Assembly: GCA_031082125.1 (NCBI GenBank)
Contig: JAVHLM010000011.1
Location: 159,054 to 197,834, forward strand
DNA from: Vulcanimicrobiota bacterium
GTDB lineage: Bacteria; Vulcanimicrobiota; CADAWZ01; Ess09-12
Length of the DNA stretch: 38,781 nt
Direction: 5' to 3'
The number at the start of each line of letters is the position of its first letter. The first letter of the stretch is position 1. The notes below the pieces were generated by a model. The model was not told where the DNA came from, did no database searches, and was given only the letters and a program-made list of their open reading frames with translations. Below are positions 10,428 to 25,739 of the stretch, piece by piece. A program made the position numbers and the translations under genes.

Positions 10428-10589
10428 GTGCGCCCCATCCTGCTGCTCACTCGTTAACAACACATCAAGGGCAGGCGTCATAAGCCGGCGATCTGTGCAG
10501 TGGTCAAAGTGCTTGGAAAATGTGATCTCTGTGCGGGGATAACCATGGGAGCTATTGTTCAACGGATCGTTTTATGCTACACTTTGATC

Positions 10590-11081
10590 ATGGAAAGACC
10601 CTCACTCTATCTTGAGACGACCATTATCAGTTACCTTGGCGGCAGGATCAGCCGGGACGTGGTAGTTCTGGCTCACCAGGAGCTCACTCTTCAATGGTGG
10701 CACCAGCAGAGAGGCAACTTCGATATGTACACGTCAGAAATTGTGTTTAATGAGGCACAGCATGGCGATAAAGAAGCCGCAGGAAAGAGGGTTGCTTTGC
10801 TTGCCGGTATACCTGTGCTGGCGTATACTCCCGATGTAGAAAGGCTTGCACGACGATATTATGAAGAGCTGTCCTTCCCGGAGAAGGCACTTGCGGATTC
10901 TTTCCATCTTGCCTTTGCGATCCATTACAGCTTGGACTATCTCCTGACTTGGAACTGCAGGCACCTTGCAAATGAAATACTCCAGAGAAGGCTTGTCAAG
11001 CTGAATGAAAGCCTGCAGCTTGCGACACCTCTTATTGTGACTCCCGAAGAGCTTATTGCACTGAGTGAGGAGGAACCATGA
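10590..11081 (+). CDS. PIN-domain (VapC-like) putative ribonuclease toxin
   Basis: The N-terminal strand 'LYLETTIISYL', then 'TSEIVFNEAQHG', 'VLAYTPDVERLARRYY' and 'DSFHLAFAIHYSLDYLLTWNCRHL' match the PIN acidic/β-α pattern. The start was chosen so that the first β-strand lies near the N-terminus. Confidence 0.5.
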   Translation: MERPSLYLETTIISYLGGRISRDVVVLAHQELTLQWWHQQRGNFDMYTSEIVFNEAQHGDKEAAGKRVALLAGIPVLAYTPDVERLARRYYEELSFPEKALADSFHLAFAIHYSLDYLLTWNCRHLANEILQRRLVKLNESLQLATPLIVTPEELIALSEEEP

Positions 11082-11263
11082 CCTGGAATGATCCTATTGT
11101 CGAGGAAGTAAGAACCGTCAGAAGAGAGATTGAAGCGGAGCTGGGCTTCGACTTTGATTCATTTTCAAAGCACCTTTATGAAATGCAATCCAGGTCACCG
11201 AGAAAGCCTCTTGAATCCTCAGACCTGGAAAGCAGGAAAACCGGGAAAAAAGCAGGGGATTGA
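11078..11263 (+). CDS. Small 61-aa protein overlapping the PIN gene stop (ATGA); putative antitoxin-like partner
   Basis: There is a 4-nt overlap with the upstream PIN gene. The protein (MTWNDPIVEEVRTVRREIEAELGFDFDSF...) is small, charged and helical. The assignment rests on context only. Confidence 0.35.
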   Translation: MTWNDPIVEEVRTVRREIEAELGFDFDSFSKHLYEMQSRSPRKPLESSDLESRKTGKKAGD

Positions 11264-11396: not shown

Positions 11397-13487
11397 TCAC
11401 TGGTTGCCCCTCGGGATTGCCCTGCTCCACTTCTTCTCGCGGACCACCTTCCCGTTCTCCAGGAGCTCTCTGGTCTCTGTCAGGTTGAAATTCTTCTCAT
11501 CGGAAGCCATCCTGAAATGGACCTTGAGAGTGAGCTCCCTGTCCGGCGGTGTGATGGTATAATTCGTCACGGCCTCGTACGTTGCATGGGCCGGGTCGCT
11601 GTCGTTCACCTTCCAGGTGTTCTGCTCCACCATGTGGTACGTCGTCTCCCTGATGGTCATCTTCTGGTTGATGCCGCAGGAGTAGACTGCCGCGCCCGTG
11701 TCGGGGTTGTACTCTATCTTTGTCTGCCTGCCTTCGTTCTCTTCCTCGTACGAGGCATCGGGCGGCCACTCCTCCTCTTGCGGCTTTGGAAGATCACAGG
11801 TTCCCGTGAGGGTGTTCCTGATGACGACGGGGAGCTCGACCCACGTGTCGGCTCCCGGGAAGAGCGTTGTCGAGCCCTTGTACGGAGTGGGCCAGGCCAT
11901 GGGGAACTGGGCATTGCCGACGGCAAGGCGGATCCTGTGGCCCGGCCTGAACCGCCACGTCGTGTAATGAATTTCCCCCGTGAGCTTCACGGGCTTGCCG
12001 GGAATAAGGGGCACCTGCCGGAGCCGCGATTCCCTGTCAGCAGGGTTTATCAGCGTGCCGCTCACCAGCGATACCTTCCCATCGGGCCACACGTCCTCGA
12101 GGCGCACGGACCACTGGTAGAGAGGGGCATCGGCCGCCACATTGAGAGAAATCCTGGGAAGGCCGATTATCTCGACGGCTTCCTTCAATGGGGCTGAATC
12201 ATAAACCAGGCTGCACTCATCGTCAAAGGCCATGTCGCCCGAGGTCTCACCCCACCACCCATGGATGCCGGTCCCCGCTCCTGCCCTGTAAGAGAGCTTG
12301 TCGTCGCTCGCTCCCTCCGGCACGGAACTTCCCAGAGCATTCTCCTCCCCGGGATAAAAGCGCTCGCTCTTGATCCCTCCCACGGGCCAGTCTCCGCAGC
12401 GCCACTCTCCCGGCACCTTTTTTATCTCCTCGTCGGGCGGGCAGGCATCGCGGACAAAGACCATGAAACGGGGCTCTTCCATGATGCCGTTATCCTCATC
12501 CTTGAGCCAGTGGTCCCACCACCTGGCGGCCTTCTCACGCCACTCGTAGTTCGGGCCCGGCACCGCGTCGTGGGGCCACTCGTGCTTCCACGGCCCCAGG
12601 TCGGCCTTGACATTCTTATTGGATGAGTTCAGCAGGCGCGGGATCGTGTCGCGGTAGCCGTCAAGGAGCCCCCCGATGATATAGACGGGGACCTCCGCCA
12701 CGGGCCTGAAGCGGTTAGACTCTTTGCGCCAGAAGGGGCCGTCACAGAGCTTCTCCTTCCATATGAAATGCCATGGCTCCCTGTCAAAGCGGTTCGCGAA
12801 GTATTCAGGGGTGATGGCGAGGCTTTCAGGATCGGGAAGGGCGTTGTAGGTGTCTATCATGGCCTCCCAGACGTCGGTATGCATGACGCCGTCGATGAAA
12901 TGGACATCCTGGTAATAAAGGTCGTCGGCCACGTGGGCTATCAGGATGGCTTTCAATGCCGGGGGCTTCCGCGCGGCCACCATGAAGGAGTTGAAGGCTC
13001 CCCAGGAGAGGCCGTACATCCCCACCTTGCCGTTTGACCATTCCTTTTTCGAGAGCTGATTGATGACCTCCACGCCGTCGGAGATCTCTTTTTCAGAGTA
13101 CTCGGCCTCGGGGAGGACTCCCTCGCTGTTGCCGGTGCCCCGCACATCCACCTTGGCCACGACATAGCCACGCCTCGCAAACCAGGCACCGACGGGATAA
13201 TCCCAGGACAGGTAGCATAAATCGTCCTTGCGGTAGCCGTTCATCTCAAAAAAGACGGGAAATTTCTCGCCTTGTTCGCCCCTGGGCATCCAGTACGACA
13301 CTGCCAGCTTTACCCCGTCGGGCATCGTGAGCATCTCCCTCTGGATGGTGAACTCGTAATCAGCCCCTGAAGAGGCGCCTCCATGGGCCCCGGTCTTCAG
13401 GGAGGCGGCATGGGGGCAGCCTGCCAGGGATATGAAGAACAGCGAGCACAGAACGGCGATGGAAAGCCTTGGGATTATCCTTTTCAT
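11397..13487 (-). CDS. CocE/NonD-family (peptidase S15 / X-Pro dipeptidyl-peptidase-like) α/β hydrolase, lipoprotein
   Basis: It has the lipobox 'FISLAGC', the nucleophile elbow 'GMYGLSWGA' and a C-terminal β-sandwich domain. AGGAGG lies 7 nt upstream of ATG (13487). Confidence 0.75.
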   Translation of the reverse strand: MKRIIPRLSIAVLCSLFFISLAGCPHAASLKTGAHGGASSGADYEFTIQREMLTMPDGVKLAVSYWMPRGEQGEKFPVFFEMNGYRKDDLCYLSWDYPVGAWFARRGYVVAKVDVRGTGNSEGVLPEAEYSEKEISDGVEVINQLSKKEWSNGKVGMYGLSWGAFNSFMVAARKPPALKAILIAHVADDLYYQDVHFIDGVMHTDVWEAMIDTYNALPDPESLAITPEYFANRFDREPWHFIWKEKLCDGPFWRKESNRFRPVAEVPVYIIGGLLDGYRDTIPRLLNSSNKNVKADLGPWKHEWPHDAVPGPNYEWREKAARWWDHWLKDEDNGIMEEPRFMVFVRDACPPDEEIKKVPGEWRCGDWPVGGIKSERFYPGEENALGSSVPEGASDDKLSYRAGAGTGIHGWWGETSGDMAFDDECSLVYDSAPLKEAVEIIGLPRISLNVAADAPLYQWSVRLEDVWPDGKVSLVSGTLINPADRESRLRQVPLIPGKPVKLTGEIHYTTWRFRPGHRIRLAVGNAQFPMAWPTPYKGSTTLFPGADTWVELPVVIRNTLTGTCDLPKPQEEEWPPDASYEEENEGRQTKIEYNPDTGAAVYSCGINQKMTIRETTYHMVEQNTWKVNDSDPAHATYEAVTNYTITPPDRELTLKVHFRMASDEKNFNLTETRELLENGKVVREKKWSRAIPRGNQ

Positions 13488-13676
13488 AGATGCTCCTCCT
13501 TGGGGAAAGATATGCATGGGCAGGGCCGTTGACGGGGAATCGCCGACGCTTTCTCTCTTTTTGAAAAGAATACACCCGGCCCTGGAAGGAATCCTGCATC
13601 CCCCTGCTCCCCTGCTGACAGGAGAGTTCCTGCAGGGAGAGAAATCCTAAAGATCCAGAAAGGGGGGTAAGGCTCG

Positions 13677-14309
13677 ATGAGAAAAATTGAAGCAAGGCAC
13701 CTGAACTGCCCCTCCTGCGGTGCCCCGATAACGGTTGAGACGGCATACGCAAAGACAGTGGTGTGCCCTTACTGTGATTCCACGAACCTTATTGAGGACA
13801 AGGGGCTGAGCCCCGCGGGCAAAATGGCGAAGATATCAAGGGCGCCTTCAATCTTCAGCGTCGGCAGGTCGGGAGCCATAGAGGGGAAAAGGTTCAGGAT
13901 TCTGGGGCGCCTCAGGTATGACTATGAAGACGGTTTCTGGGACGAGTGGTACCTGAAGTACGAAGATGGAAAAGCAGGATGGATAAGCGAGGAAGAGGGT
14001 GAGTGCACGCTCTTCTTCAAGGAGGCCGTGACCGGGGAGATTGACCTGGGAAGCATCAGGGTGGGACAGAAGGTGATGGTCAACGGGCGCCAGGTCTTCA
14101 TCACGGAGATCCAGGATGCCACTCTTGCCGGCGGCGAAGGGGAGCTCAACTACCGTGCCGTTCCTGGAACGGCAGTAACCCACTATGAGGGCAATGCCTC
14201 GGGCACCCTCATATCAATCGAGGTGTGGCCCAGGGAGCTGGAGGTCCATGCAGGACACCCGGTAAGCTATGAGTCGATCCACATGGATGAGACGGAAGGT
14301 GAGCCTTAA
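13677..14309 (+). CDS. DUF4178 domain protein with an N-terminal zinc ribbon (CPSCG...CPYCD)
   Basis: It has a CxxC...CxxC ribbon, then the 'GKRFRILGRLRYDYEDGFWDEWYLKYEDGKAGWISEEEGE' DUF4178-type core. Confidence 0.65.
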   Translation: MRKIEARHLNCPSCGAPITVETAYAKTVVCPYCDSTNLIEDKGLSPAGKMAKISRAPSIFSVGRSGAIEGKRFRILGRLRYDYEDGFWDEWYLKYEDGKAGWISEEEGECTLFFKEAVTGEIDLGSIRVGQKVMVNGRQVFITEIQDATLAGGEGELNYRAVPGTAVTHYEGNASGTLISIEVWPRELEVHAGHPVSYESIHMDETEGEP

Positions 14310-14343
14310 ATCAGGCGGATAATCATAAAGGCGAGGTGATCCC

Positions 14344-14571
14344 ATGAATTTCATGATGATACTCAATGAATTTGTCAAAGATGTCGCGTGGGCCGTGACG
14401 GCGGCGATCGCCATGAGCGCGGCGCTTGCCATACTGCTTGCCATTTACAACAAGCTCACGCCCCAGCTTGACGAGATGCAGGAGCTGAAAAAAGGCAATA
14501 TTGCCGTGGCTATCGTGATGGCGGCAGTAATCCTCTCTTACGGATTTGTCGTGGGAATGATGGTGCGCTGA
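14344..14571 (+). CDS. DUF350-family small membrane protein (2 TM)
   Basis: It is 75 aa with two hydrophobic helices separated by 'KLTPQLDEMQELKKGN'. There is an RBS GGCGAGGTGA before the ATG. Confidence 0.65.
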   Translation: MNFMMILNEFVKDVAWAVTAAIAMSAALAILLAIYNKLTPQLDEMQELKKGNIAVAIVMAAVILSYGFVVGMMVR

Positions 14572-14582
14572 CCCGGGCAGGC

Positions 14583-16094
14583 TCACTCCCACTGGCTCCA
14601 GCCCTCGAGGTAATAGGTGAGAAGCACGGGATTGTCAAGCGTATTGATCTCCGTGCTCACCGGGCTGATGTCATCGGGGAAGGAAAAGAGCGAGGCCAGG
14701 ACGGCCGGGTTCAGGTAGCGCACAGGCACCTGCAGGCTGATTCTCTCAAGCTTTACCGGCAGAGGCGAGGCGAGGACGAAACCCCATTCGCCGAAAGAAG
14801 GCACGTTCACATGGAGAGGCTCCGCAGAGAAGCCGGCGTCCCTCACGGTATTGACTATGCACCAGAAGGCGCTGCGGGCAAAAAAAGGCGAAGTGGCCTG
14901 CACCGATACCATCGCGCCCTTGGCGCAATGCTGCCGCACCATCTGGTAAAACTGCGTGGAATAGAGCTTTCCGATGCTCTCATTGTTCGGGTCGGGGAAA
15001 TCCGCGATTATCACGTCATAAAGGCCGGGATTTCTCGAGAGCCAGGTGAAGGCGTCTTCAATAATCACCTCCATCCTTGCATCGCCCAGTGATCCCCTGT
15101 TGAGGCCTGCAATAAGGGTGTTTGTCCTGCAGAGCTTCACTATTTCACTGTCCAGATCGACGAGCGTCACATGCTTCACCCCGGGATATTTCAGGACCTC
15201 CCTGGCAGCCAGTCCGTCTCCGCCGCCGAGAATCAGCACCTGTTCCCGGTGAAGAGCCGCGCTCATGGCAGGGTGAACCAGCACCTCGTGATAGCGGTAT
15301 TCGTCGAGGGAGCAGAACTGGAGGTTCCCGTCGAGGTAAAGCCTCAGGTCTTCACGGTTCCTGGTGAGCACGATCCGCTGATATTTTGTCTGCCTCGTGA
15401 GGATAATCTCGTCGGCAAACATCCTGTTTTCGAAAAAGCCTGTGAGGCGGAAGGAATAGAAAAAGCCGCCAAAAAGCAGAAGCACGCTGATGACCGATGC
15501 GGCAAAGAGAGGCCGCAGGCTCTGAATTGAATTCCTGAAGAGGTTCATGAAAAGGAAGGCCACGACGATATTGAGGAGCCCGTAAAGGAATGAAGCTTTC
15601 ATGAGGCCCAGGTGAGGAAGCAGCAGCAGGGGGAAAAGAATGCTCGCTGCGAGGGCCCCGCAGTAATCGACGGCAAGCACCTGGGCCACGGCGGTGTTCA
15701 GGCTCCGGTATTCGTTCACCAGCCTTATGAGAAGGGGGATCTCAAGGCCGATAAGGCCCCCCACTATCAAGAGAAGGAGGAAAAAGGCCACGTAAAAGCT
15801 GCTTTCCGCAAAAGTATAAACAGAGAACATGACAAGAGAGAAGAAGCCGCCTGCCACGGCAATAAGCACCTGGGCCAGCACAAAGGCCCCCGCCACGTTC
15901 TTTTCAATCCGCCCCGATAAATAGGAGCCCAGGCCCATCGCGAAGAGAAATATGCCTATGGTGAGCGAAAACTGAAGGATGCTGTTGCCCAGGAAGTACG
16001 AGGTGATGGTGCCTGCGAGCAGCTCATATCCCAGCCCGCATAGGGAAATGACAAAGGTGATGACAAGGAGGACCAGGGGCGTTGTCGGTTTCAT
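14583..16094 (-). CDS. Polyamine aminopropyltransferase (spermidine-synthase-like) fused to an N-terminal multi-TM domain
   Basis: The N-terminal ~200 aa are hydrophobic. The C-terminal domain 'VLILGGGDGLAAREVLKYPGVKHVTLVDLDSEIV...VIIADFPDP' is a SpeE-type Rossmann fold. Confidence 0.8.
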   Translation of the reverse strand: MKPTTPLVLLVITFVISLCGLGYELLAGTITSYFLGNSILQFSLTIGIFLFAMGLGSYLSGRIEKNVAGAFVLAQVLIAVAGGFFSLVMFSVYTFAESSFYVAFFLLLLIVGGLIGLEIPLLIRLVNEYRSLNTAVAQVLAVDYCGALAASILFPLLLLPHLGLMKASFLYGLLNIVVAFLFMNLFRNSIQSLRPLFAASVISVLLLFGGFFYSFRLTGFFENRMFADEIILTRQTKYQRIVLTRNREDLRLYLDGNLQFCSLDEYRYHEVLVHPAMSAALHREQVLILGGGDGLAAREVLKYPGVKHVTLVDLDSEIVKLCRTNTLIAGLNRGSLGDARMEVIIEDAFTWLSRNPGLYDVIIADFPDPNNESIGKLYSTQFYQMVRQHCAKGAMVSVQATSPFFARSAFWCIVNTVRDAGFSAEPLHVNVPSFGEWGFVLASPLPVKLERISLQVPVRYLNPAVLASLFSFPDDISPVSTEINTLDNPVLLTYYLEGWSQWE

Positions 16095-16309
16095 TATTTT
16101 CCGCCGTGCAGTCCTCCCCCGCTGAAAGAGTGAAAGCCGCTCCTCCCGTGATGGTGATGGCCATGGCGGTAGGAGCCGTCCCTCACCGATTTTCCCGTTT
16201 TGTAAAGGGAGGGCACATCAAGGCCCAGGTAGGAATAAATACCCCCGAAGATAAAGAGCACTATGACGACAATCAGCACGATCCTGCTCACTATGGCATA
16301 CTTGTTCAT
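16094..16309 (-). CDS. Small membrane protein (1 TM) with a His/Gly-rich tail (HGHHHHGRSGFHSFSGGGLHGGK)
   Basis: AGGAGG is spaced 4 nt before ATG (16309). The stop overlaps the SpeE-like start (TAATG). Confidence 0.5.
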   Translation of the reverse strand: MNKYAIVSRIVLIVVIVLFIFGGIYSYLGLDVPSLYKTGKSVRDGSYRHGHHHHGRSGFHSFSGGGLHGGK

Positions 16310-16331
16310 TGCTCCTCCTGGAACGGGCACG

Positions 16332-17687
16332 TCAATCGATTTCGGTCAGATCTGAGCCCAGCATCGAGATGAACCCCACCACCACAACGTAGGCAAAAAG
16401 TAAAAAGAATATGATGCCGGTAAGAATTGACCATACTGCGGTCACAAGCCCCGGATAGATGAGGACCACTTTCCCGAAAGTGAAGAAGATCGGCGGCGAA
16501 AAGGCCTTCTCATAGACTGTGACATGGAATGCCCTGTCCTTGGTGTTTTCGGGCACAATCTGGAGATAATAGGTCCCCTTTTCCCTGGGGACAAAAAGCC
16601 TGGTGCACTTTATATCGGCGGTCTTTTCAAGGCCGCTGGACTCAAAGTCGGGATCTTCCTGCCAGAAGGTATGATCGAATGTGCCTACAGACTCCTTGTT
16701 CTTATTGAGGACATTGAACTCGCAGTATAGCTCTTCATTCTTCACTTCCGTTTGGATCACCGCCTTGTGCACCGTACCCGGGGACTTCACCTCAAAGGGC
16801 CCCAGGATGAGCTCCGGGCTCTTCGGGGAGACGATCTCGTGGTACTGCCGGGTAATCGCCGAGCCGTTGTAGGAGGAGAGCCACCACCCCGCGAGGAGGA
16901 AAATAATACCCGCGGCGAGAGTGACCCAGTAAACCTGCATTCCCATCAGCTGAATGGCAAACTCGGCATAACTGGTTTTCCTGGCGGGTGGGCTTTCCTC
17001 TTCGTCATCATCGTCTTTCTCGAAGGCGATGGGGGGAATGGCCTCGGTGATGTTGAAGGCCTTGTAGATGTCCCTTACATCCTTCTCCCAGCCCTTGAAA
17101 TACAGGATCTCCCGGTCGCTCCACTCTATTGAATAGACCGTGTCATTGCCTTTCCAGGCATCAAGGTAATTGACGGTATCACCGACCTTGGCAGCCCAAG
17201 TGAGCTCACCCTCAAAGAAGCTCACCACGGCTTTGGAGTATTCATCGACTTTCAGCTCCTGCCCCTCGAAGACCACGTGATAGCTTGATTTTTCAGGATC
17301 AGGCGGATCGTCGGGAGTGAATTTCTGGGTGACGATAAAGCTCCAGTCATCCTCCACGATCCAGAGGTAATCCCCCGACTCGGCCAGCAGAAGCCATTCA
17401 TCCCATTCCTCGAGCTTCACGTTCCGGTAATGGATGCGCCCGATAATCCGGAACTTCCCCTGCTTGAAATCGGCAACGGCTCCCACCTTCAGAGCGCTCT
17501 TGGGGGGAAGTATCTCCATTTCCCCGCCTTTCTCTTCTTCTTTGCCGTCCTTCATGGAGAGCGAGGAATCGCAGTGGCTGCAGTAAAGCGCCCTGGACAG
17601 CAGTGAGCTCTTCACCTCGAGAGATGATCCGCAGTGGGGACACTTGACCGATTTCGCACCTGTGGGTATCTGTTCCTGGGGCTCCAT
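16332..17687 (-). CDS. DUF4178-domain protein with an N-terminal zinc ribbon (CPHCGS...CSHCDS) and a C-terminal membrane-anchored domain
   Basis: The 'GKFRIIGRIHYRNVKLEEWDEWLLLAESGDYLWIVEDD' core is paralogous to the 13677 gene. There are internal and C-terminal TM helices. Confidence 0.65.
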   Translation of the reverse strand: MEPQEQIPTGAKSVKCPHCGSSLEVKSSLLSRALYCSHCDSSLSMKDGKEEEKGGEMEILPPKSALKVGAVADFKQGKFRIIGRIHYRNVKLEEWDEWLLLAESGDYLWIVEDDWSFIVTQKFTPDDPPDPEKSSYHVVFEGQELKVDEYSKAVVSFFEGELTWAAKVGDTVNYLDAWKGNDTVYSIEWSDREILYFKGWEKDVRDIYKAFNITEAIPPIAFEKDDDDEEESPPARKTSYAEFAIQLMGMQVYWVTLAAGIIFLLAGWWLSSYNGSAITRQYHEIVSPKSPELILGPFEVKSPGTVHKAVIQTEVKNEELYCEFNVLNKNKESVGTFDHTFWQEDPDFESSGLEKTADIKCTRLFVPREKGTYYLQIVPENTKDRAFHVTVYEKAFSPPIFFTFGKVVLIYPGLVTAVWSILTGIIFFLLFAYVVVVGFISMLGSDLTEID

Positions 17688-17766
17688 ACCCAAAATTTCT
17701 ACAGGAGCCCTGGCTTACCCTTTAGGGAGAAGAAACCTTTTCCTTGGCCAGTTTCTGGCTGGCCCA

Positions 17767-17958
17767 TCACAAGAATGAATCCAGTGTGCCCCGCAATAAC
17801 TCCTGCAGAAACGGTAAAACAAGTATTCTCTGATAGAGAGGGTAATTTTCATCCCAGGCTTCCTGAGTAAAACTCTTTGCCAGGGCTGTGGAGGATGCTG
17901 AAATAACGATGAAAAGGACAAGAAGCAGGACGATTGTTCTTCTATAACTGCAAATCAT
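17767..17958 (-). CDS. Small exported protein, 63 aa; predicted signal peptide MICSYRRTIVLLLVLFIVISASSTALA, mature ~36 aa
   Basis: There is an ATGA overlap with the upstream subtilase stop. It has a classical n-h-c signal peptide ending AxA. Confidence 0.45.
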   Translation of the reverse strand: MICSYRRTIVLLLVLFIVISASSTALAKSFTQEAWDENYPLYQRILVLPFLQELLRGTLDSFL

Positions 17959-20492
17959 GGATTCACTCCCACGGCGAGCTGCCGGGCGCGGAGCACGGCC
18001 TGCTCCGGGTCAACGACGCCTGCTCCCGCCGTGTGCGCCGGGATTCTTCCCCCCGAGAGCTTTGAGATATCGACGGCGGTGTCGCTCAGGATCTGCTTGA
18101 TCTGCTGCGGGGTGAGGCTTGGATTTACCTGCTTCATCAGGGCTATGACGCCGCACACGTAAGGCGCGGCAAGAGAGCTGCCCATGCCGCTCCCCGGGGC
18201 TCCGCCCGGCGCGTTGATGTGCACGCCGGGGGCAAGCACCGTGGGGTTGTAACCCCCGGGGCCCTGGCCGCTCGGAGGCGCCCCGCTGCCGTCAAGGCCG
18301 TAATGGGCAAGGCCGTCGTCGCCATAGCTTCCCGCCGTCCCTGAGCTGTCGGAGCCGCTCACGACAATCACGTGATTGCTCATTGCGAGAGCATTGAGAT
18401 CGGTGCCGGGCTTCACCTCGCCCCATGGCGGCCTGTCCGGGGGTCCTGGATCGCCAGGCCGGTAATTCCCATTGCCGTTCCCTGCGGCTACTACCACGCT
18501 CACCCCTGCCTCTGAGAGCCCGCGGGTGACCTCCTGGTATCTCTTGAGAGACTCGGAGAAGGCGCTCCCCGGCCTGTTATGCTCCTTATCCACGTAGCCG
18601 ATGATCTTTTCCATCTGCTGGCGAACCGTGAGCTTATCGCCCCCGCTGCCCAGGACCGCCTCCCTGATGCCCGGGAAGGCGAAGCTTCCGTCTTCCTTTT
18701 TCTCCCCGATTATCCGCAACACGGTGTTCAGGTCTGCAGAGCCGCCGCCGCCGATGGATATGTTGAGGGCGCTCATCTTCTCCTTCCCTGACCGCACGTC
18801 CTGGAGAAGGCTCTCAAGGCGCCTGTTGAGAAGGTCAAAGCTCCCTGACTTCGCAAGGAACCTGTTGAGCGATTCGGCATTATCTTCGAGCTTTTCGCCC
18901 TCGGGGTTCATGCCCGCCGGGGGTTTTATCAGGGTGTTGAGGTTGGGGAAGAAGTCGGGTCCCGCCTGCTGCATGCCGGTCCCGTTTTTCTCCAGGCCGA
19001 ATCCCTTTGTCGTGGCCCCGGGCGCCACGCCATGCTCAGCGTTATTAATCTTACCCGACACGCCGAAGGAGTGGCCTCCGCACTGCTGGGCAAACTCATC
19101 GAAGTCCACGTCCAGGAAGCCTATATTCTGGCCTTCCCCCGTGATCTGCCTTCCCTGGGCATCGCGCATTTTTGAATTGACGCGCTCCCGGATCACCCTG
19201 ATCTCGTCGTTGGCCTTACCCTGCTCGACGTCCTTCTCATTTATCCTCTCCCTGTACTCCATCGAGGTGGCTGTGCCGTCTCCCTTGAAATCATACAGGC
19301 TCAGCTTCCTGAACAGGCCGGGCTCTCCCCCGTAGACTGCCTCAGTGCAGGTGAGGTTACCTTCTCCGCTCATGCGGTATGTTCTTGACGGGCCTTTCCC
19401 CTCCATGGCGCCTGTGAAACCTGGACCGACGCGGAGCCTGTCCCGATAACGGTAGAGGGAGGTAATTTCTCCCGGGATCTTCTTCCCTTCGGCGTCCAGG
19501 GTGTCAGCGGCTTTTTCCTGCAGAAGGACCTGCCCCGGGATATCCTTGCTGAACTGCACCATCTTCGAGGATCCGTCCGGCAGTGAAGCCGTGATAACAG
19601 TGGACCCGTTGGCGGCAGTGCTCACTTCCTCTTTCTTGCTCCTCCCGTCAGGGTACGTGGTGGTGATCACCGTGGTGCCCTTGGCGGATTTCTTGATTTC
19701 TTCGCGCTCCCCTCCGGGGAGAATGTGCACGCCTTCGCCCTGGGAAGCCTTTTCTGCCACTGAGAGGCCGTATTTATATTCCTTATCGGCTTTTGCGCGG
19801 GCTCCCTCGTATTCCTTCCTCATGCTCTCTGCCTTTTTGGGATCGACGGGAGCGGGAGCGGGCATGTCATCCTGTTTTGCCGGGGCCGGGGAAGGCTGGC
19901 CTGCCCTGGGCCGGGGAGCCGGTGCAGGCGCGGCATCTTTGATCCGGGACTCGCTCTCCTCATCGTCCAGCATCAGGAGGGTGCCGTTGGAGCCCGCCTC
20001 TATCCTGGGAGCAAGATCATTCCTTCTCATATTGTGGGAGCTTACTGCCTGAGCAATGGCCCCCGGGACTGCGCTTTTCAGGAGCGACTGCGGAGTCGCG
20101 GTGCCATTGGGCTCCTGCGCGGGAGCGGCAAAGTCAGGAGAGCCATCGGTGCCTGCCGTTGCTCCTGGGCCGCTGTGGAAATCAGTGGTCTTTGCTGAAG
20201 AGCTCTGCTGCTGTTCCCTGCCGGTGCCACCCGCCATGCGCCAGAGTGCCTTGAATTTCTCAGCGGAAAACGATCCCGGCTTGAATGCCGTACCCGGGCC
20301 TTCAGGAACGCTCCCCCTCCCCACCTCGCCGCTTGGCGTGAATTCTTCCTTTCCATTGCAGCCGCTGCCCGCCTCTTCGCCGGGAGCCTGTGACGGTGCA
20401 CCAGGCCTTTTCTCATAAGCCCTGTGGCTCGTGATAGCCGGTATTGTGCCCTGGTGGCCGGGCACCCTCTGTCCTTCACCTATGGAGCTCAT
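17955..20492 (-). CDS. 845-aa protein with a C-terminal subtilisin-like (S8) peptidase domain and a ~480-aa non-protease N-terminal region; no signal peptide
   Basis: 'VSVVVAAGNGNGN', 'GVAPGA' and 'GMGSSLAAPYVCGVIALMKQ' align with the subtilisin Asn, His-region and Ser motifs. The N-terminus is hydrophilic. Confidence 0.65.
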   Translation of the reverse strand: MSSIGEGQRVPGHQGTIPAITSHRAYEKRPGAPSQAPGEEAGSGCNGKEEFTPSGEVGRGSVPEGPGTAFKPGSFSAEKFKALWRMAGGTGREQQQSSSAKTTDFHSGPGATAGTDGSPDFAAPAQEPNGTATPQSLLKSAVPGAIAQAVSSHNMRRNDLAPRIEAGSNGTLLMLDDEESESRIKDAAPAPAPRPRAGQPSPAPAKQDDMPAPAPVDPKKAESMRKEYEGARAKADKEYKYGLSVAEKASQGEGVHILPGGEREEIKKSAKGTTVITTTYPDGRSKKEEVSTAANGSTVITASLPDGSSKMVQFSKDIPGQVLLQEKAADTLDAEGKKIPGEITSLYRYRDRLRVGPGFTGAMEGKGPSRTYRMSGEGNLTCTEAVYGGEPGLFRKLSLYDFKGDGTATSMEYRERINEKDVEQGKANDEIRVIRERVNSKMRDAQGRQITGEGQNIGFLDVDFDEFAQQCGGHSFGVSGKINNAEHGVAPGATTKGFGLEKNGTGMQQAGPDFFPNLNTLIKPPAGMNPEGEKLEDNAESLNRFLAKSGSFDLLNRRLESLLQDVRSGKEKMSALNISIGGGGSADLNTVLRIIGEKKEDGSFAFPGIREAVLGSGGDKLTVRQQMEKIIGYVDKEHNRPGSAFSESLKRYQEVTRGLSEAGVSVVVAAGNGNGNYRPGDPGPPDRPPWGEVKPGTDLNALAMSNHVIVVSGSDSSGTAGSYGDDGLAHYGLDGSGAPPSGQGPGGYNPTVLAPGVHINAPGGAPGSGMGSSLAAPYVCGVIALMKQVNPSLTPQQIKQILSDTAVDISKLSGGRIPAHTAGAGVVDPEQAVLRARQLAVGVNP

Positions 20493-20722
20493 TGAATCAC
20501 CGCCTGAAAAATAAAAAAACCAGTAGATTCACGTTTCCCTGGCTCTCCTGCCCAATGTCCCTGTCTTTTCGTTCAGTTATCTTTTATATTATTATAAGGC
20601 CTCCATATTGCCATTGTATTACTGCAATGTAAATTTTTCTTGAAATGCGAAGACCTTTTTCCCGGCACATGGACAGCGGCACCTGTGTCATGGCTTCAGC
20701 GGCCTGTCAGAAAGCGGCTCTT

Positions 20723-22186
20723 CTAAAGAAGGCGTTCTTCAGGCCTGTTCTCCCCAAGCTTTTCCTTTAAAAGTGTTCCGTTATTTCCATAAAAAGGTTC
20801 TTCAAAGGCCTCAAGCTTCCTGATATAGTCCCGGTGATATTTTTCAGCCTGCCTGAGCGCCAGGCCGCAGGTGATCCTGTTCCCGTAGGTTCTCTCCAGA
20901 AACATTCTCTTGAAGCTGTAAAATTTCTTGTTGGCTCTCTGCACCGCTCTCTGGAGAACGCTTGGCCGCATATGCATGGGAAAGAAGACAGAATGATGAC
21001 AGTCGTAATATCTCCAGTCATAGGTAAAGATCCGGTTTTCCTCGACGCACTGAGTAAATACCTCCGATCCCGGCAGGGGGCAGAGTATGAAAAGCTGCAT
21101 GACGGCCATGCCAAGCTCAATGGCGTGGTCAACGGTTTCTGCCACCGTCTCTTCCGTATCGGAGTCCGATCCGACAATGAACATCCCGTTCACCTTGAGA
21201 CCGTGCTTTCTTGCCTGCTCCACGGCAAACCGGATCTGCTCGACAGATATGTTCTTCTTCCATTCCTTCAGTGAGCCTCTGCTGATGGACTCGAAGCCCA
21301 CATGGAGGAGCCCGAAGCCTGCCTCGTTGATAAGGGAGAGGAACTCCTCATCCTTGAAAGTCTCAACTCTGAGCTGCATGTTATAAAGGACATGACGGGG
21401 CTTCCCCAGCCTGATCATCTTCCTCAGGAGCTCTTTTGCGCGGTCCATGTCAACGGTGAAATTGTCATCGATGATCATTATGGATTTTCTCTCTTTTATG
21501 CCCTTGAGAGCATTTCTGATGTCGTCGATGCAGCAGTCAAGATCCCGGTAGCGCAGCTTCCTTCCCGCAAGCTTGATCACCGTGCAGTATCTGCAGTTGA
21601 ATGGGCATCCACGGGAGGTATAGACCATGGGAGTATAGAAGAACCTGCTTCCCAGTCCGTTCTTATAGGCTTCTATCCCCTTGACCCTGGAGAAGGTGGC
21701 GGGGACATTGATAAATTCATCACTAATCTCCCGGTCCTCATTGTGGACTATGGCCCCATCCTTTCTGTAGGAGAGCCCCTTTATTCCCTCCACGCCGCTG
21801 CCTGCATTGAGAGCGGCGAGAAGCTCCAGGAATGTCTTCTCCGCCTCGCCCCGGGCGACATAATCACAGTGGCCGAGCGCCTCGTCGGGCTGAAAGGTGG
21901 CGTGGGGCCCTCCCATGATGACGGTTTTCCCGCGCTTTTTCAGGGCATCTGCATACCGGTAGCCCTGATGCGATGAGTTTGTCAATATGGAGATTCCCAG
22001 GAGGTCATAGCCCTCAAGCTCACCCATCGAGGGCTTTCTTATCTTGTCGCTGAATATGTCAACTTCATATCCCTCATGCTCGAGCAGGTTCCCCAGCACG
22101 GGAAGGCCAAGCCGCGGAATTCCAATCAGCTTGTAAATATTGGGGATATCGGTATCAGGCTCGACAAGGGCAATCCTTTTTATCAT
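20723..22186 (-). CDS. B12-binding-domain radical SAM protein (class B rSAM)
   Basis: It has an N-terminal B12-binding-like Rossmann fold, then 'YTSRGCPFNCRYCTV' CxxxCxxC. There is a C-terminal extension of ~120 aa. Confidence 0.8.
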   Translation of the reverse strand: MIKRIALVEPDTDIPNIYKLIGIPRLGLPVLGNLLEHEGYEVDIFSDKIRKPSMGELEGYDLLGISILTNSSHQGYRYADALKKRGKTVIMGGPHATFQPDEALGHCDYVARGEAEKTFLELLAALNAGSGVEGIKGLSYRKDGAIVHNEDREISDEFINVPATFSRVKGIEAYKNGLGSRFFYTPMVYTSRGCPFNCRYCTVIKLAGRKLRYRDLDCCIDDIRNALKGIKERKSIMIIDDNFTVDMDRAKELLRKMIRLGKPRHVLYNMQLRVETFKDEEFLSLINEAGFGLLHVGFESISRGSLKEWKKNISVEQIRFAVEQARKHGLKVNGMFIVGSDSDTEETVAETVDHAIELGMAVMQLFILCPLPGSEVFTQCVEENRIFTYDWRYYDCHHSVFFPMHMRPSVLQRAVQRANKKFYSFKRMFLERTYGNRITCGLALRQAEKYHRDYIRKLEAFEEPFYGNNGTLLKEKLGENRPEERLL

Positions 22187-22502
22187 GGGAATCACCATGC
22201 TCCGGTTTCTTATCAGGATCCAATCTTAACAGATAATGGCCCGCAGTGCAAGGCCCAGAAAAAGGAGATATAGCCGGCAGCATTGCGAAGAGCAGGGCAC
22301 TCAGCCAGCTCAGCATGGAAAGCTCGACCCTGCGGCCCATCGCCCCCTGTGAGAAATGCAGGAGAGGCTTTCTGCTCTCAAGCTGGTATCCTCCCAGGAG
22401 GCGCGGATAAGTAAAGATGAAAACGATGAAGCATGCGATGAGCACCGCTGCCTGCACTAGCTTTCTGCGCAGGGGGAGGCCTCTTTCTGCCGGGGAAGGC
22501 AC
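22155..22502 (-). CDS. Possible small membrane protein ORF between the PilZ gene and the rSAM gene; it overlaps the rSAM start
   Basis: The ORF starts 15 nt after the PilZ stop. It has two hydrophobic helices. There is no homology, and its real extent is uncertain. Confidence 0.25.
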   Translation of the reverse strand: MPSPAERGLPLRRKLVQAAVLIACFIVFIFTYPRLLGGYQLESRKPLLHFSQGAMGRRVELSMLSWLSALLFAMLPAISPFSGPCTAGHYLLRLDPDKKPEHGDSHDKKDCPCRA

Positions 22503-22517
22503 CGGGAAATCAACTGT

Positions 22518-22916
22518 TCAGTGGCCGATGAGATAATAGCGGTCAATGAAAAACTCCAGCTTTTTAGCGTCCTTGTCACTGATGTTGACGAACTCTATCC
22601 CGCCTTCATAATGAAGCCCGGCCGCCGAGTGCCTTTCATCGCACCACACCACGCGCCCGGTTACCTCGAGCGATAAAAGCGCAGGGTGGAGCGCTATCCT
22701 GATAGTAAGAATCTCATCAGCGATCAGCATGTGGTGAGAAATAAAGTTCAGCCCCGCGGTGCTCACGTTCTCTGATTTCACCTCAAAGACTGACTCACTC
22801 CGAGGGCTGGAGCATTCCAGGGAGAGCACCATTTTGAATCGGCTGGCTTTTCTGCGCTCTGTTCCCGAAAAGACGCTTTTTGCATCGGGTATTCCGCCAT
22901 ATTTTGCAGTACCCAT
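22518..22916 (-). CDS. PilZ-domain protein (c-di-GMP receptor family)
   Basis: It has the 'RRKASR' (RxxxR) and 'NVSTAGL' (D/NxSxxG) motifs. The RBS AAAGGGG precedes the ATG. Confidence 0.65.
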   Translation of the reverse strand: MGTAKYGGIPDAKSVFSGTERRKASRFKMVLSLECSSPRSESVFEVKSENVSTAGLNFISHHMLIADEILTIRIALHPALLSLEVTGRVVWCDERHSAAGLHYEGGIEFVNISDKDAKKLEFFIDRYYLIGH

Positions 22917-23126: not shown

Positions 23127-25739
23127 GTGATGAATATCACAGACTTGTTCCGCAGATTTGCTACAATGAGTGCAAGACCAGAAAGAATCCAGAGGGAAGA
23201 AAGGAATACAATGTCAGAGAATACGCGAGAGAGAGATTTGGTGCTTGCCCCGAATGAATATGCCTTTATCCTCGATGAGACCAAGGGCCATGTGATTGCT
23301 TACGTGGGCCCCTTCAAAACAAGCCTTGCCAACACCGACAGGCCCGTCATTTTCGAGGAGCTGTCACGGAAGTTCAAGAGATGCAGCCTTGAAGAGGCGA
23401 TCACTCAGTTCCCCTTCGCCGAGGAGGGGTGGTACATAGTGCTTGAAAACCCGGTGAAGGAAGGAGATGAAGAGCATCCCAAAAGCGGCCCCGCGAGCCT
23501 TCCGAGGCTTGCGCCGGGAAGAAAGGTGAACATTCCCGGTCCCGTCACCTTCCCTCTGTGGCCCGGCCAGGTGGCCCATGTCATCCAGGGGCATCACCTG
23601 CGCTCAAACCACTATCTCGTGATCAGGGTTTACAACGAGGAAGCGGCGAGAGATAACTGGGCCAAGGCAGTCATCAAGCCCCAGAAAGCCTCTCCCGCGG
23701 GGGCACCTGATATAGACAAGGGAAAAGCCGATGATTCCGGCAAGCCGGCAGGCGGCACCACGGTGAAGCCCGATGTGGAGATACCCGATCTCACCATCGG
23801 CAAGCTCCTCGTGGTGAAAGGAACGGATGTCTCTTTCTATATCCCTCCCACGGGCATTGAGGTGGTAAGGGATGAAAACGGGAACTACGTGAGAGAGGCT
23901 GTCACCCTGGAACGGCTTGAATACTGTATCCTCCTGGACGAGGACGGCAACAAGCGCTTCATCGAAGGCCCTGCCGTGGTATTCCCGAGGCCCACGGAGC
24001 GGTTCGTCGAGAAGAGCGGGGCCAGGAAGTTCAAAGCCATTGAGCTGAACGAGATAAGCGGCCTCTACATCAAGGTGATAGCACCCTACAGGGATGAAAA
24101 GGGCACGGAATACAAGGTGGGAGACGAGCTTTTCATCACAGGCAAGGACCAGATGATCTACTTCCCGAGGCCCGAGCATGCCATCATCAAGTACGGCGAC
24201 CAGGAGATCCACTTTGCCGCAGCAATCCCCACGGGTGAAGCCCGGTATGTCCTCAACAGGGTCTCGGGGGAGATCAGCCTGAAAAGGGGCCCCTGCATGT
24301 TCCTGCCCGATCCCCGCAAAGAGGTGAACATCCAGCGGATCCTGGAGCCCAAGATCGTGCAGCTCTATTATCCCGGCAACCAGGAAGCCCTGGAATACAA
24401 CCTGAAGCTCATGGATCTCAAGAGGATCACCAGGAGCGACTTCATTGACACCACGCAGGTAAAGAAGGAGATGGCGGGCCAGGGAGCCGACAAAGGGCGC
24501 AAGCCTCTTTCAAGAGGAAGGAGCGAGGCTGAGGAAGCCCCGGACAGCTTCGCGGGCGATGACTTCAACAGGAAACAGGGATTCACGCCGCCCAGGACCA
24601 TCACCATGGACACCAAGTATGAGGGCGCTGTCTCGATCAACGTGTGGACCGGCTATGCCATCATGGTGGTGAACAGGACAGGAGAGCGCAAGGTCGTAGT
24701 CGGCCCCCAGACCCATATCCTTGAATTTGATGAGATGCTCGAGGCCATGAAGCTCTCCACGGGCACTCCCAAGAGCGACGACAACGTCATCAGGACAGTG
24801 TACCTGAGGGTCCTCAACAACAAGGTCTCCGATATCGTCAACGCCGAAACCCAGGACCTCTGCCAGGTGAGCATCCAGATCTCATACCGCGTCAATTTTG
24901 AAGGAGACCCCGTGAAATGGTTCGACGTGGAGGATTACGTGAAGTTCCTCACCGAGCACATGCGATCCGTTCTGCGCAATGCCATAAAGCACTATGGCAT
25001 CGAGGAGTTCTATGCAAATTCGATCAAGATAATAAGGGATACCATTCTCGGGACTGCCGGCGAGGAGTCGAAGCGCCCGGGGAAGCGCTTTGACGAGAAC
25101 GGCATGCGCATCTATGACGTGGAAGTCCTGGGAGTTGGAATCGGCGACGAGGTGATAGCGGGCCTTCTCATGGAGGCGCAGCACTCGGTGGCCCAGCAGA
25201 CCATCAGTATCACCAAGGAGCAGAAGAACCTGGAGATGACCAGGAGGCTCGAGGAGATAAAGCAGCAGATAAGCGCCGCCCAGTCCGAGACGATGCTGAA
25301 GCATATCACGCTTGAGATAGCGGAAGTGGAGAAAACTCTTGAACTGAGCCTCTCGAAAATAAAAAGCGAGGTTGATGCCGCCAACCTGCGCCTCGCCTCG
25401 CAGCTTGAGCAGCAGGGCAGGCTCAGCGACATCGCCGAAGCAGAGCTTGACAGGGAGAGGAAGCATAAGGAGCAGGAAATGGAGTTTGCGCAGGAAGCCC
25501 TCAAGCAGCGCATTGAGGAGCTCGGCGCCCAGGTGAAGGCAGTAGTCGATAAGGCAGCGGCCGTATCGCCTGATTTCATCGCCGCCCTGCAGTCCTTTGC
25601 AGACAAGAGCCTCGCGGAAAAGATGGCCGACACCATGGCCCCGCTTGCGATACTCGGAGGCAAGAGCATCGCCGAGGTCTTCGCCCAGCTTCTGAAGGAC
25701 ACGCCGCTTGAAGAGGTGATAAAGAAGAGAGCGAAGTAA
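23127..25739 (+). CDS. Major vault protein (MVP) homologue, 840-870 aa
   Basis: The N-terminal repeats 'PNEYAFILDETKGHVIAYVGPFKT' and 'FPLWPGQVAHV' resemble the MVP 'PPYHYIHVLDQNSNV..VGPKTY' and 'FPLYPGEVLE' segments. The C-terminal shoulder and cap-helix-like coiled coil (…IKIIRDTILG…LEEIKQQISAAQ…) and the overall length also fit MVP. The likely true start is ATG 23214 (MSENTRERD), which has a purine-rich RBS. Confidence 0.7.
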   Translation: MMNITDLFRRFATMSARPERIQREERNTMSENTRERDLVLAPNEYAFILDETKGHVIAYVGPFKTSLANTDRPVIFEELSRKFKRCSLEEAITQFPFAEEGWYIVLENPVKEGDEEHPKSGPASLPRLAPGRKVNIPGPVTFPLWPGQVAHVIQGHHLRSNHYLVIRVYNEEAARDNWAKAVIKPQKASPAGAPDIDKGKADDSGKPAGGTTVKPDVEIPDLTIGKLLVVKGTDVSFYIPPTGIEVVRDENGNYVREAVTLERLEYCILLDEDGNKRFIEGPAVVFPRPTERFVEKSGARKFKAIELNEISGLYIKVIAPYRDEKGTEYKVGDELFITGKDQMIYFPRPEHAIIKYGDQEIHFAAAIPTGEARYVLNRVSGEISLKRGPCMFLPDPRKEVNIQRILEPKIVQLYYPGNQEALEYNLKLMDLKRITRSDFIDTTQVKKEMAGQGADKGRKPLSRGRSEAEEAPDSFAGDDFNRKQGFTPPRTITMDTKYEGAVSINVWTGYAIMVVNRTGERKVVVGPQTHILEFDEMLEAMKLSTGTPKSDDNVIRTVYLRVLNNKVSDIVNAETQDLCQVSIQISYRVNFEGDPVKWFDVEDYVKFLTEHMRSVLRNAIKHYGIEEFYANSIKIIRDTILGTAGEESKRPGKRFDENGMRIYDVEVLGVGIGDEVIAGLLMEAQHSVAQQTISITKEQKNLEMTRRLEEIKQQISAAQSETMLKHITLEIAEVEKTLELSLSKIKSEVDAANLRLASQLEQQGRLSDIAEAELDRERKHKEQEMEFAQEALKQRIEELGAQVKAVVDKAAAVSPDFIAALQSFADKSLAEKMADTMAPLAILGGKSIAEVFAQLLKDTPLEEVIKKRAK

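Follow-up and report, generated by a model that had tools for sequence, protein, structure and literature searches.

A widespread envelope module with a membrane-fused aminopropyltransferase and a Lys-terminated tail protein in a Vulcanimicrobiota genome

We analysed a 38,781-nt stretch of DNA from a Vulcanimicrobiota bacterium (GenBank assembly GCA_031082125.1, contig JAVHLM010000011.1, positions 159,054 to 197,834; hereafter the window), in which a spermidine-synthase-like enzyme fused to a membrane domain is encoded among several small membrane and zinc-ribbon proteins. Bases 13677-17693 of the window very probably hold one copy of a widespread envelope module that has been described computationally and is biochemically unsolved. 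With high confidence we assign to this module two zinc-ribbon DUF4178 proteins (one soluble, one spanning the membrane), a small tail protein with a membrane anchor, a DUF350 protein and an aminopropyltransferase fused to seven transmembrane (TM) helices, and we place a neighbouring S8-like protease and a 63-aa open reading frame (ORF) outside it. The locus is a further copy of a known uncharacterised operon, and its added value is the tail protein, a mini-protein that ends in Lys, as do all the related tails collected. The comparison drops the protease as a false lead and offers a concrete candidate acceptor for the enzyme, the terminal Lys of the adjacent mini-protein.

The genes of the window were judged from ORFs with their translations, from Pfam and NCBIfam searches and from the G+C content of third codon positions (GC3). 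The features of the neighbourhood are:

13677..14309, plus strand: short DUF4178 protein, 210 aa (Pfam DUF4178, 1.6e-15)
14344..14571, plus strand: DUF350 (YjfL-family) membrane protein, 75 aa (Pfam DUF350, 7.1e-10)
14583..16094, minus strand: membrane-fused aminopropyltransferase, 503 aa (PRK03612 and Spermine_synth)
16094..16330, minus strand: tail mini-protein, 71 aa from the ATG at 16309; the ORF reaches a GTG at 16330
16332..17693, minus strand: long DUF4178 protein, 451 aa from the ATG at 17687 (NCBI annotation) or 453 aa from the TTG at 17693 (Pfam, 8.8e-17)
17767..17958, minus strand: 63-aa ORF with a signal-peptide-like N-terminus, probably no gene
17955..20492, minus strand: S8-like protein, 845 aa (Pfam S8, 2.5e-16)

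In the direction of transcription the minus strand runs from the S8-like gene through the 63-aa ORF, the long DUF4178 gene and the mini-protein to the aminopropyltransferase, and the two plus-strand genes converge on this series. An earlier reading of the sequence alone (the sequence-only reading) had described seven ORFs, six of which are real at the coordinates it gave; the seventh, a "signal-peptide mini-protein" of 63 aa, is doubtful, having a GC3 of 0.45 (overall GC 0.43) and no homologue. GC3 is 0.61-0.78 in every gene of the neighbourhood, the mini-protein included (0.67). The same reading had put all extra genes on the strand of the core, which does not hold for the layout as a whole, since the short DUF4178 and DUF350 genes lie on the plus strand and are convergent with the rest. 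The stop codons of the DUF350 and aminopropyltransferase genes are 11 nt apart (14569-14585), and neither the sequence nor a terminator scan revealed a terminator-like structure between them. Promoter and terminator scans over 13300-20800 gave results at chance level. Transcripts of both strands may overlap at this convergence, and the same convergent layout of DUF350 and enzyme genes is seen in a locus from Xenobia (L001).

Scanning one genome per species gave 80 loci (L001-L080) encoding a relative of the enzyme at 43-57% identity. They span Eremiobacterota/Xenobia, Chloroflexota, Desulfobacterota, Verrucomicrobiota, Bacteroidota, Bacillota, Actinomycetota, Proteobacteria and others. When iterated profiles of the window proteins were searched against all six-frame ORFs of these loci, DUF4178 was detected in 64 of the 80 and DUF350 in 61-65, and 17 loci carry a pair of short and long DUF4178 proteins. 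The recurrent order is DUF4178 (~210 aa), DUF4178 (~440 aa), in some cases a small tail ORF, DUF350 (~72 aa) and the enzyme. This clustering of DUF4178, DUF350 and enzyme genes is far beyond chance, and the recurrence across bacteria of a DUF4178/DUF350/membrane-fused SpeE trio, which had been put forward in the sequence-only reading, is borne out in most of the 80 loci and in many phyla. That reading had also called the function of the trio unknown, and the literature searched offered no functional assignment. Frequent additional genes among the 80 loci are a flavin amine oxidase directly downstream of the enzyme (28 loci), a small S-adenosylmethionine decarboxylase (AdoMetDC, 19 loci) and a Band_7_1-SHOCT protein upstream (15 loci). 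PspA is encoded in four loci, and the Bacillota carry it together with a DUF4247 lipoprotein.

In L001 the enzyme is 54% identical, and the DUF350 and short DUF4178 genes are inverted as in the window. The long DUF4178 protein has its closest relatives in L082 (45% identity) and in L083, from Armatimonadetes, and both loci have the order long DUF4178, tail protein, enzyme. This order is retained in all four of the closest relatives (L001, L012, L082 and L083).

The mini-protein of the window is encoded between the long DUF4178 protein and the enzyme. Its likely start is the ATG at 16309, which is preceded by a GGAGGA Shine-Dalgarno sequence, and its stop codon overlaps the ATG of the enzyme as TAATG. 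The protein is anchored by one TM segment at its N-terminus and contains an SVRDGS motif (16172-16189) and a His-rich stretch, and its tail, ...SVRDGSYRHGHHHHGRSGFHSFSGGGLHGGK, closes on GGGLHGGK (16097-16120; sequence end ...SGGGLHGGK) with Lys as the last residue. The versions in the window and in L082 are both His-rich, which is a trait of this lineage. No Pfam family was matched by the mini-protein; among its counterparts, the longer Bacillota lipoproteins alone match a family, DUF4247.

Profile iteration first gave 11 homologues of the mini-protein, all with a hydrophobic N-terminal anchor, an S-[IV]-R-x-G-S motif and a C-terminal GGG-x-x-G-K. A simple C-terminal pattern has 34 matches among 11,346 ORFs, and 31 of these directly precede the enzyme gene on its strand. 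Homologues are found at this position in other phyla, and both monoderm and diderm phyla have the tail. The tail comes in three architectures. In Burkholderiales, Sphingobacterium and others it is fused to the long DUF4178 protein (...SGGSFGGFSGGGGHK), on the DUF4247 lipoproteins of Bacillota it reads ...RGGGPGAGK, and elsewhere it stands alone as in the window. Of the 64 loci with DUF4178, 53 have it: it stands alone in 28, is joined to the C-terminus of DUF4178 in 22 and is carried by a DUF4247 lipoprotein in three. It was detected in none of the 16 loci that have no DUF4178. Where a gene of its own encodes the tail, an acidic run (e.g., DDDD) closes the long DUF4178 protein. Among the collected tails, position -1 is Lys in 56 of 56, position -2 is Gly or His, and positions -6 to -8 are Gly.

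Because a pattern that includes the Lys cannot speak for its invariance, every ORF with a Gly-rich C-terminus was also taken with the last residue ignored. Such C-termini end in Lys in 53 of 64 cases within the 1.5 kb before the enzyme, compared with four of 187 elsewhere (binomial P = 7e-64). On this sequence evidence the mini-protein is a conserved core part of the module. The sequence-only reading had added a His/Gly-rich protein with one TM segment to the module, and its retention in 53 of 64 DUF4178 loci supports that membership more strongly than had been claimed.

The aminopropyltransferase matches NCBIfam NF002956/PRK03612 with 626.6 bits (cutoff 472) over residues 6-502 and Pfam Spermine_synth at 8e-37; NCBIfam classes NF002956 as an equivalog named 'polyamine aminopropyltransferase'. 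Residues 1-216 form seven TM helices, as judged from the hydrophobic segments of the window protein and of 74 averaged homologues, and residues ~225-475 form the spermidine-synthase-like domain. Both the donor-binding GGGDG (residues 290-294, nt 15213-15227) and the catalytic DxxDP, present as ADFPDP (residues 364-369, nt 14988-15005), are intact, and G290-G294, D365, P367, D368 and P369 are kept at at least 90% across the family. The best solved relatives are a thermospermine synthase (6bq2, 1e-36) and the Thermus thermophilus enzyme 1uir; the nearest structures are those of broad-specificity (Thermus) or long-chain aminopropyltransferases. The full-length model, the polytopic N-terminus and the intact motifs identify the window protein as a PRK03612-type fusion, for which aminopropyl transfer is predicted. 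Within the TM domain, the acidic or polar intrahelical positions E24, E75, E118 and D143 are kept at at least 90% (E75 is Gln in the window protein), and such conserved intramembrane acids would suit the passage of a cation.

The two DUF4178 paralogues share the conserved motifs WDEW and EGELTW (EGELNY in the short protein). The short protein starts with a zinc ribbon of two CxxC pairs (CPSCG at 13707-13721 and CPYCD at 13764-13778), followed by the DUF4178 domain, and it is predicted to be cytoplasmic because it has no hydrophobic segment. The long protein likewise has a zinc ribbon (CPHCG, CSHCD) and then the DUF4178 domain, which are followed by a TM helix at ~249-274, a predicted extracytoplasmic beta-sandwich at ~280-395 of a carbohydrate- or lipid-binding type and a C-terminal hydrophobic region. 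No solved structure matching DUF4178 by sequence was found. The DUF350 protein scores 39.5 bits against the Pfam cutoff of 26 and has two hydrophobic segments, taken as two TM helices. Metagenome scans with the long DUF4178 protein and with the S8-like protein returned no relatives of either, suggesting that this lineage is poorly sampled.

Three independent lines suggest that the chemistry of the module takes place outside the cytoplasmic membrane. The first is the distribution of Lys and Arg in the enzyme, averaged over the 74 homologues. The N-terminus (2.7) and loops 2-3 (2.0), 4-5 (3.1) and 6-7 (2.4) are rich in these residues, in contrast to loops 1-2 (0.0), 3-4 (0.09) and 5-6 (0.09) on the opposite side, and the stretch past TM7 is net acidic. 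Taken with seven TM helices, these counts predict an N-terminus inside and a catalytic domain on the outer face. The topology of the tails provides another line. Fused forms have one or three TM segments, always an odd number, between the zinc-ribbon/DUF4178 part and the tail, and as the former lacks a signal peptide and is probably cytoplasmic, the tail should be on the opposite side; the lipoprotein forms bear a lipobox, and the stand-alone forms resemble signal anchors. Finally, nearly all of the partner amine oxidases in the 28 loci have a twin-arginine signal followed by a lipobox Cys, so that they are predicted to be lipoproteins exported by the twin-arginine translocation (Tat) pathway. 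Examples of amine oxidase genes directly after the enzyme are those at 11460-13148 in L021 and 11653-13341 in L037. An apparent fusion of enzyme and amine oxidase in L020 was set aside as evidence of co-localisation, as it is a read-through that retains the Tat signal of the oxidase.

In aminopropyltransferases, decarboxylated S-adenosylmethionine (SAM) is attacked by a primary amine that terminates a chain of four or five carbons. The side chain of Lys is such an amine, and since the donor-binding and catalytic motifs are intact, we propose the terminal Lys as the acceptor. The physiological acceptor would then be the epsilon-amine of the invariant C-terminal Lys on the Gly-rich tail of the mini-protein and not free putrescine, and the Gly residues ahead of the Lys would enable the end of the chain to slip into the closed acceptor pocket. 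Such a reaction would yield a spermidine-like cation, -(CH2)4-NH-(CH2)3-NH2, tethered to the membrane surface. The acidic 7-TM domain would pass the cationic donor, decarboxylated SAM, across the membrane to the catalytic domain. The DUF4178 proteins, in which a cytoplasmic zinc-ribbon/DUF4178 part can be joined to an outer beta-sandwich, would serve as scaffold or sensor, a role that is a guess. Where it is encoded, the amine oxidase, which is of the polyamine-oxidase type, would remove the modification. Module identity and mechanism taken together form a tentative statement to which we give somewhat less than an even chance. That the enzyme aminopropylates the terminal Lys of the tail is possible but doubtful. 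The fuller proposal of a new modification, in which the terminal Lys is aminopropylated (possibly repeatedly) outside the membrane with a donor supplied through the 7-TM domain and the group is taken off again by a Tat-exported lipoprotein amine oxidase, is speculative, and we consider it rather unlikely.

Several observations weigh against this mechanism. The assignment of the acceptor draws on synteny, motif invariance and chemical logic. We know of no precedent for an extracytoplasmic enzyme that depends on decarboxylated SAM, and the delivery of this donor to the outside is purely our inference. Searches with the sequences from the other loci (tblastn) detected none of the AdoMetDC, amine oxidase, PspA and Band-7/SHOCT module genes in the window, so that with no AdoMetDC there the supply of donor in this genome is only assumed. 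No conserved Cys pairs that could mark a periplasmic location were found in the catalytic domain. The AlphaFold2 model of the long DUF4178 protein is poor (mean predicted local distance difference test score 57) and silent on the role of DUF4178. Moreover, 11 of the 64 DUF4178 loci do not satisfy the tail criterion. Three of these (L005, L017 and L050) do have a Gly-/Ser-rich C-terminus ending in Lys that was missed by the criterion or by the distance window. The remaining loci are mostly of a subtype, seen in L006, L007, L020, L021, L022, L029, L071 and L079, whose long DUF4178 protein ends in ...RRW..SDYSP..DDD, and no Lys-terminated Gly-rich tail was found nearby by the criteria used. This subtype belongs to Verrucomicrobiota, Bacteroidota, one member of Eremiobacterota and Bdellovibrionia, and either its tail is too divergent for detection or the module works without one. 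The parallel with Escherichia coli drawn below meets a difficulty too, as the ATP-grasp ligases encoded there must be cytoplasmic and the DUF1190 proteins next to them look exported, which by analogy suggests a mismatch in topology.

Other acceptors have to be weighed against the terminal Lys. The enzyme may make a polyamine, either free or exported (such as spermidine, thermospermine, norspermidine or aminopropylcadaverine), that protects the envelope, in which case the 7-TM domain would export the product, the tail, DUF350 and DUF4178 proteins would be regulators or structural partners, and the Lys would serve some other purpose. The equivalog name 'polyamine aminopropyltransferase', the intact donor and catalytic motifs, the true polyamine synthases that are the best solved relatives, and the AdoMetDC (19 loci) and polyamine-oxidase-like (28 loci) genes that often adjoin the enzyme all fit such a product. 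It would, however, leave unexplained the invariant terminal Lys, the three architectures of the tail and its fixed position, and fusions of this kind reportedly gave no spermidine and no complementation (Li et al. 2019); 'other substrates' are considered by Ravi et al. 2024 (PMC11237479) as well. Overall, we judge a free polyamine to be a rather improbable product. It is unlikely, in our estimate, that the acceptor is another amine of the envelope, either a lipid head group (phosphatidylethanolamine, lysyl-phosphatidylglycerol or an ornithine lipid) or a peptidoglycan diamino acid. On this view the lipid would be presented by the 7-TM domain, and the tail would be a cationic tether to membrane or cell wall, with its Lys perhaps cross-linked to peptidoglycan as in Braun's lipoprotein. 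The predicted location of the catalytic domain on the outer face, directly behind a polytopic domain, argues for an envelope substrate, as does the outer beta-sandwich of the long DUF4178 protein, which is of the carbohydrate- or lipid-binding type. The C-terminal Lys of the tail also has a parallel in Lpp, which attaches to peptidoglycan via its own C-terminal Lys. In other genomes the module is linked to the membrane-stress proteins PspA and Band-7/SHOCT (PMC11237479). On the other hand, conserved genes for lipid synthesis or L,D-transpeptidases are missing from the neighbourhoods, and the tail is shared by monoderm and diderm phyla.

A different proposal concerns the extent of the module. 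The sequence-only reading had joined the S8-like protease and the 63-aa signal-peptide mini-protein to the core as one larger envelope module. In such a module the protease might, for example, process a component. The S8-like protein matches Pfam S8 with 60.3 bits (cutoff 21.8), aligning to profile positions 111-286 alone (the C-terminal 60%), and NCBI names the identical protein 'S8 family serine peptidase'. It has no signal peptide, and a low-complexity N-terminus of ~250 aa and a middle region precede the S8 domain. Candidate catalytic motifs are FLDVDFD (459-465), GGHSFG (472-477), AAGNG (669-673) and GSSLAAP (771-777). The Ser of GSSLAAP and the oxyanion Asn of AAGNG align with subtilisins; for the candidate His (GGHSFG) and Asp (FLDVDFD) the alignment is confined to a weak BLAST segment, and the Asp is Glu in one relative. 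The protein is like subtilases (Peptidase S8) in its C-terminal half, with the AAGN and G-S-S-x-A-A-P motifs, and differs from them in an N-terminal half of the domain that is barely recognisable and in an insertion of ~100 aa between the candidate His and Asn. Word-indexed searches returned the protein itself and one weak match, P0002, which was rejected as a relative because it is an ordinary subtilase in an unrelated context. An exhaustive profile-free search gave 13 relatives at E<1e-30, the best with 51% identity over the whole non-repetitive part. All members of this small divergent family that were seen have long low-complexity N-termini.

Three relatives of the S8-like protein could be placed on contigs (L085, L086 and L087; 51%, 37% and 36% identical). 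Their contexts are a second S8 paralogue and an aldo-keto reductase in L085, phosphoglucomutase genes in L086 and a short contig in L087, and no DUF4178, DUF350, tail-protein or enzyme gene was detected at any of the three. At 4919-9722 of L085, another paralogue (704 aa) comes after the closest relative, which indicates that this divergent subtilase family can occur in tandem. The larger module has in its favour that the genes share a strand, that the S8 stop codon overlaps the start of the 63-aa ORF as ATGA, that the 267-nt spacer holds no convincing terminator or promoter (the scans there being at chance level), and that a promoter-like AT-rich region lies upstream of the S8 gene. The conservation of neighbourhoods argues against it. 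The protease is encoded in none of the 80 loci and is absent from L082 and L083, where the upstream genes are, respectively, an unrelated 165-aa gene and a divergent PASTA kinase; in L001, the nearest relative in the scan with same-strand upstream sequence, an acetyl-CoA carboxylase carboxyltransferase gene is found there and no protease. The 63-aa ORF has no homologue in the 80 and two further related loci and no Pfam match, and with its non-coding-like GC3 it is probably a chance ORF in the AT-rich spacer between the S8 and long DUF4178 genes. Furthermore, the Lys of the tail is genetically terminal, so that no processing is needed to expose it. The comparison of gene neighbourhoods that had been suggested as a check on the sequence-only reading accordingly splits its additions, with the mini-protein conserved beside the core and the protease and the 63-aa ORF not conserved there, which refutes the protease part of the larger module and leaves the signal-peptide mini-protein without standing as a member. 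From its sequence context the S8-like protein is a lineage-specific neighbour on the same strand and no conserved part of the module, and we regard the larger module as highly improbable.

Other genes of the window were also noted. Upstream of the S8 gene and on the same strand (20723-22916, minus) are a B12-binding radical SAM enzyme, with a best match to an HpnJ-like model (161 bits, far below the model cutoff), and a PilZ-domain protein. Past these two genes and 2.6 kb from the module, an 870-aa homologue of the eukaryotic major vault protein is encoded at 23127-25739 on the plus strand (Pfam MVP_shoulder 1.2e-29, Vault_3 7e-8 and Band_7 8e-6). Proteins of the Band-7/SPFH type go with the module in 15 other loci, and any link between the vault homologue and the module is conjectural. 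At the left edge (4-2448, plus), an 814-aa protein that may run past the end of the window has ~35 tandem N-terminal repeats of the PQ[VA]Q type, then a long disordered region and a C-terminal HD_5 domain of the HD-GYP type; the repeats account for the extreme AT skew (0.45) of the first kilobase. At 7848-10427 (plus) an 859-aa protein is encoded that has an HNH nuclease motif at its C-terminus; next comes a PIN-domain gene (10500-11081), the end of which is overlapped by a 61-aa ORF (11078-11263) in a toxin-antitoxin-like arrangement. A reading of the neighbourhood as a defence system was dropped, since PADLOC gave generic methyltransferase-fold and subtilase matches alone.

The module corresponds to a PspA-associated operon described by Ravi et al. 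(2024, mSystems, PMC11237479). In that paper, a spermine/spermidine-synthase-like domain is fused to a 7-TM 'transporter-like' domain and is encoded with YjfL/DUF350, a novel lipoprotein (Ctha_1186) and DUF4178, the archetype being the SO_3765 region of Shewanella oneidensis, and the system is suggested to monitor polyamines or 'aminopropylation of other substrates'. The fusion of seven TM helices with Spermine_synth, the DUF350 protein and DUF4178 are common to that operon and the window. In Shewanella, 'LipoSIG+Ctha_1186+Low-comp' is placed directly upstream of DUF350 and the enzyme, and we liken it to the mini-protein of the window by position and description, not by sequence; the paper text considered here holds no mention of an invariant terminal Lys. 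The window differs from the published operon in having neither the CesT/Tir-PspA dyad (no PspA by tblastn, no Pfam domain) nor the ribbon-helix-helix (RHH) regulator, in having two DUF4178 paralogues, one of them membrane-spanning, in a tail carrier that consists of a TM anchor and the tail, and in the inversion of the DUF350 and short DUF4178 genes to the other strand. Given that PspA was found in four of the 80 loci, the dyad marks a subtype and not the core.

Membrane-fused SpeE genes with DUF350 and DUF4178 neighbours occur across most bacterial phyla, and the published view is that the fusions probably aminopropylate something other than putrescine. Literature searches found no later functional work on the fusion and no useful work on Mycobacterium tuberculosis Rv2597-Rv2601, of which Rv2601 is presumably a 'membrane SpeE' gene. 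Li et al. 2019 (Biochem J 476:2579), cited by Ravi et al., reportedly showed that such fusions co-occur with a functional AdoMetDC and DUF350, make no spermidine and fail to complement an E. coli speE mutant, and are said to have left the acceptor unidentified. The enzyme architecture and the linkage to DUF350 reported for those fusions are as in the window; an AdoMetDC neighbour is present in 19 of the 80 loci, whereas the 38.8-kb window has no such gene.

With the soluble SpeE/ACL5 synthases (6bq2, 1uir and 1inl) the enzyme shares a homologous catalytic domain (E 1e-36 to 2e-20) in which GGGDG and DxxDP are kept, and it differs from them in an N-terminal 7-TM domain of ~220 aa, in its predicted extracytoplasmic catalysis and in an operon with non-polyamine genes. 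Protein Lys residues that carry aminoalkyl or polyamine groups are known from hypusine on eIF5A and from diatom silaffins. Conjugation of spermidine to the C-terminal GG of a protein (SUMO) gives a eukaryotic precedent (PMC12270671). The likeness of all three to the proposed product is chemical alone, as they are made by other enzymes (deoxyhypusine synthase, E1/E2), are eukaryotic or archaeal, and none is on a terminal Lys at a bacterial membrane.

The closest parallel in chemical logic comes from E. coli. The sequence-only reading had likened the trio to the yjf cluster, and the resemblance is confirmed in that yjfJ (PspA family), yjfL (DUF350) and yjfC (peptide--spermidine ligase) are encoded there, in a cluster type that also has DUF2491 and DUF1190. 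In E. coli K-12, the DUF1190 proteins YjfM, which ends in ...SRGGYGRSSSARGHWGG, and YgiB, which ends in ...TRGGFGES...SRSMGG, are each encoded directly upstream of a peptide--spermidine ligase gene, yjfC and ygiC (yjfM-yjfC at 12388-14192 of L088, ygiB-ygiC at 2745-4582 of L089). The physiological substrate of this ligase is given as unknown in a 2025 review (PMC11762307), and we infer that the DUF1190 tails are candidate substrates of YjfC and YgiC. As in the window, the yjfIJKLMC and tolC-ygiBC clusters (Pederick et al. 2023, cited in PMC11762307) bring together DUF350, an anchored protein with a C-terminal tail rich in Gly, Ser and Arg, and a polyamine enzyme encoded next to it. The E. coli enzyme, unlike that of the window, is an ATP-grasp ligase of the cytoplasm and takes spermidine ready-made, and no glutathionylspermidine-synthetase-like ATP-grasp domain was detected in the cluster genes of the window with Pfam and NCBIfam. 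The E. coli tails end in GG-COOH and those of the window type in G[GH]K-COOH, and the E. coli clusters have no DUF4178. The predicted products are nonetheless near-isosteric, with a spermidine-like chain at the C-terminus of a protein; spermidine ligated to a C-terminal Gly carboxylate is about the same appendage as an aminopropylated C-terminal Lys. This parallel supports the logic of the proposed mechanism.

Should the prediction fail, the locus would be one more copy of a known uncharacterised operon. If it is true, it would explain what thousands of bacterial 'membrane SpeE' genes are for, and their enzymes would achieve by aminopropyl transfer what YjfC and YgiC would achieve by C-terminal spermidinylation of DUF1190 tails. 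The aminopropyltransferase clusters and the peptide-spermidine ligase clusters of E. coli, both with DUF350, are linked by this shared chemical logic.

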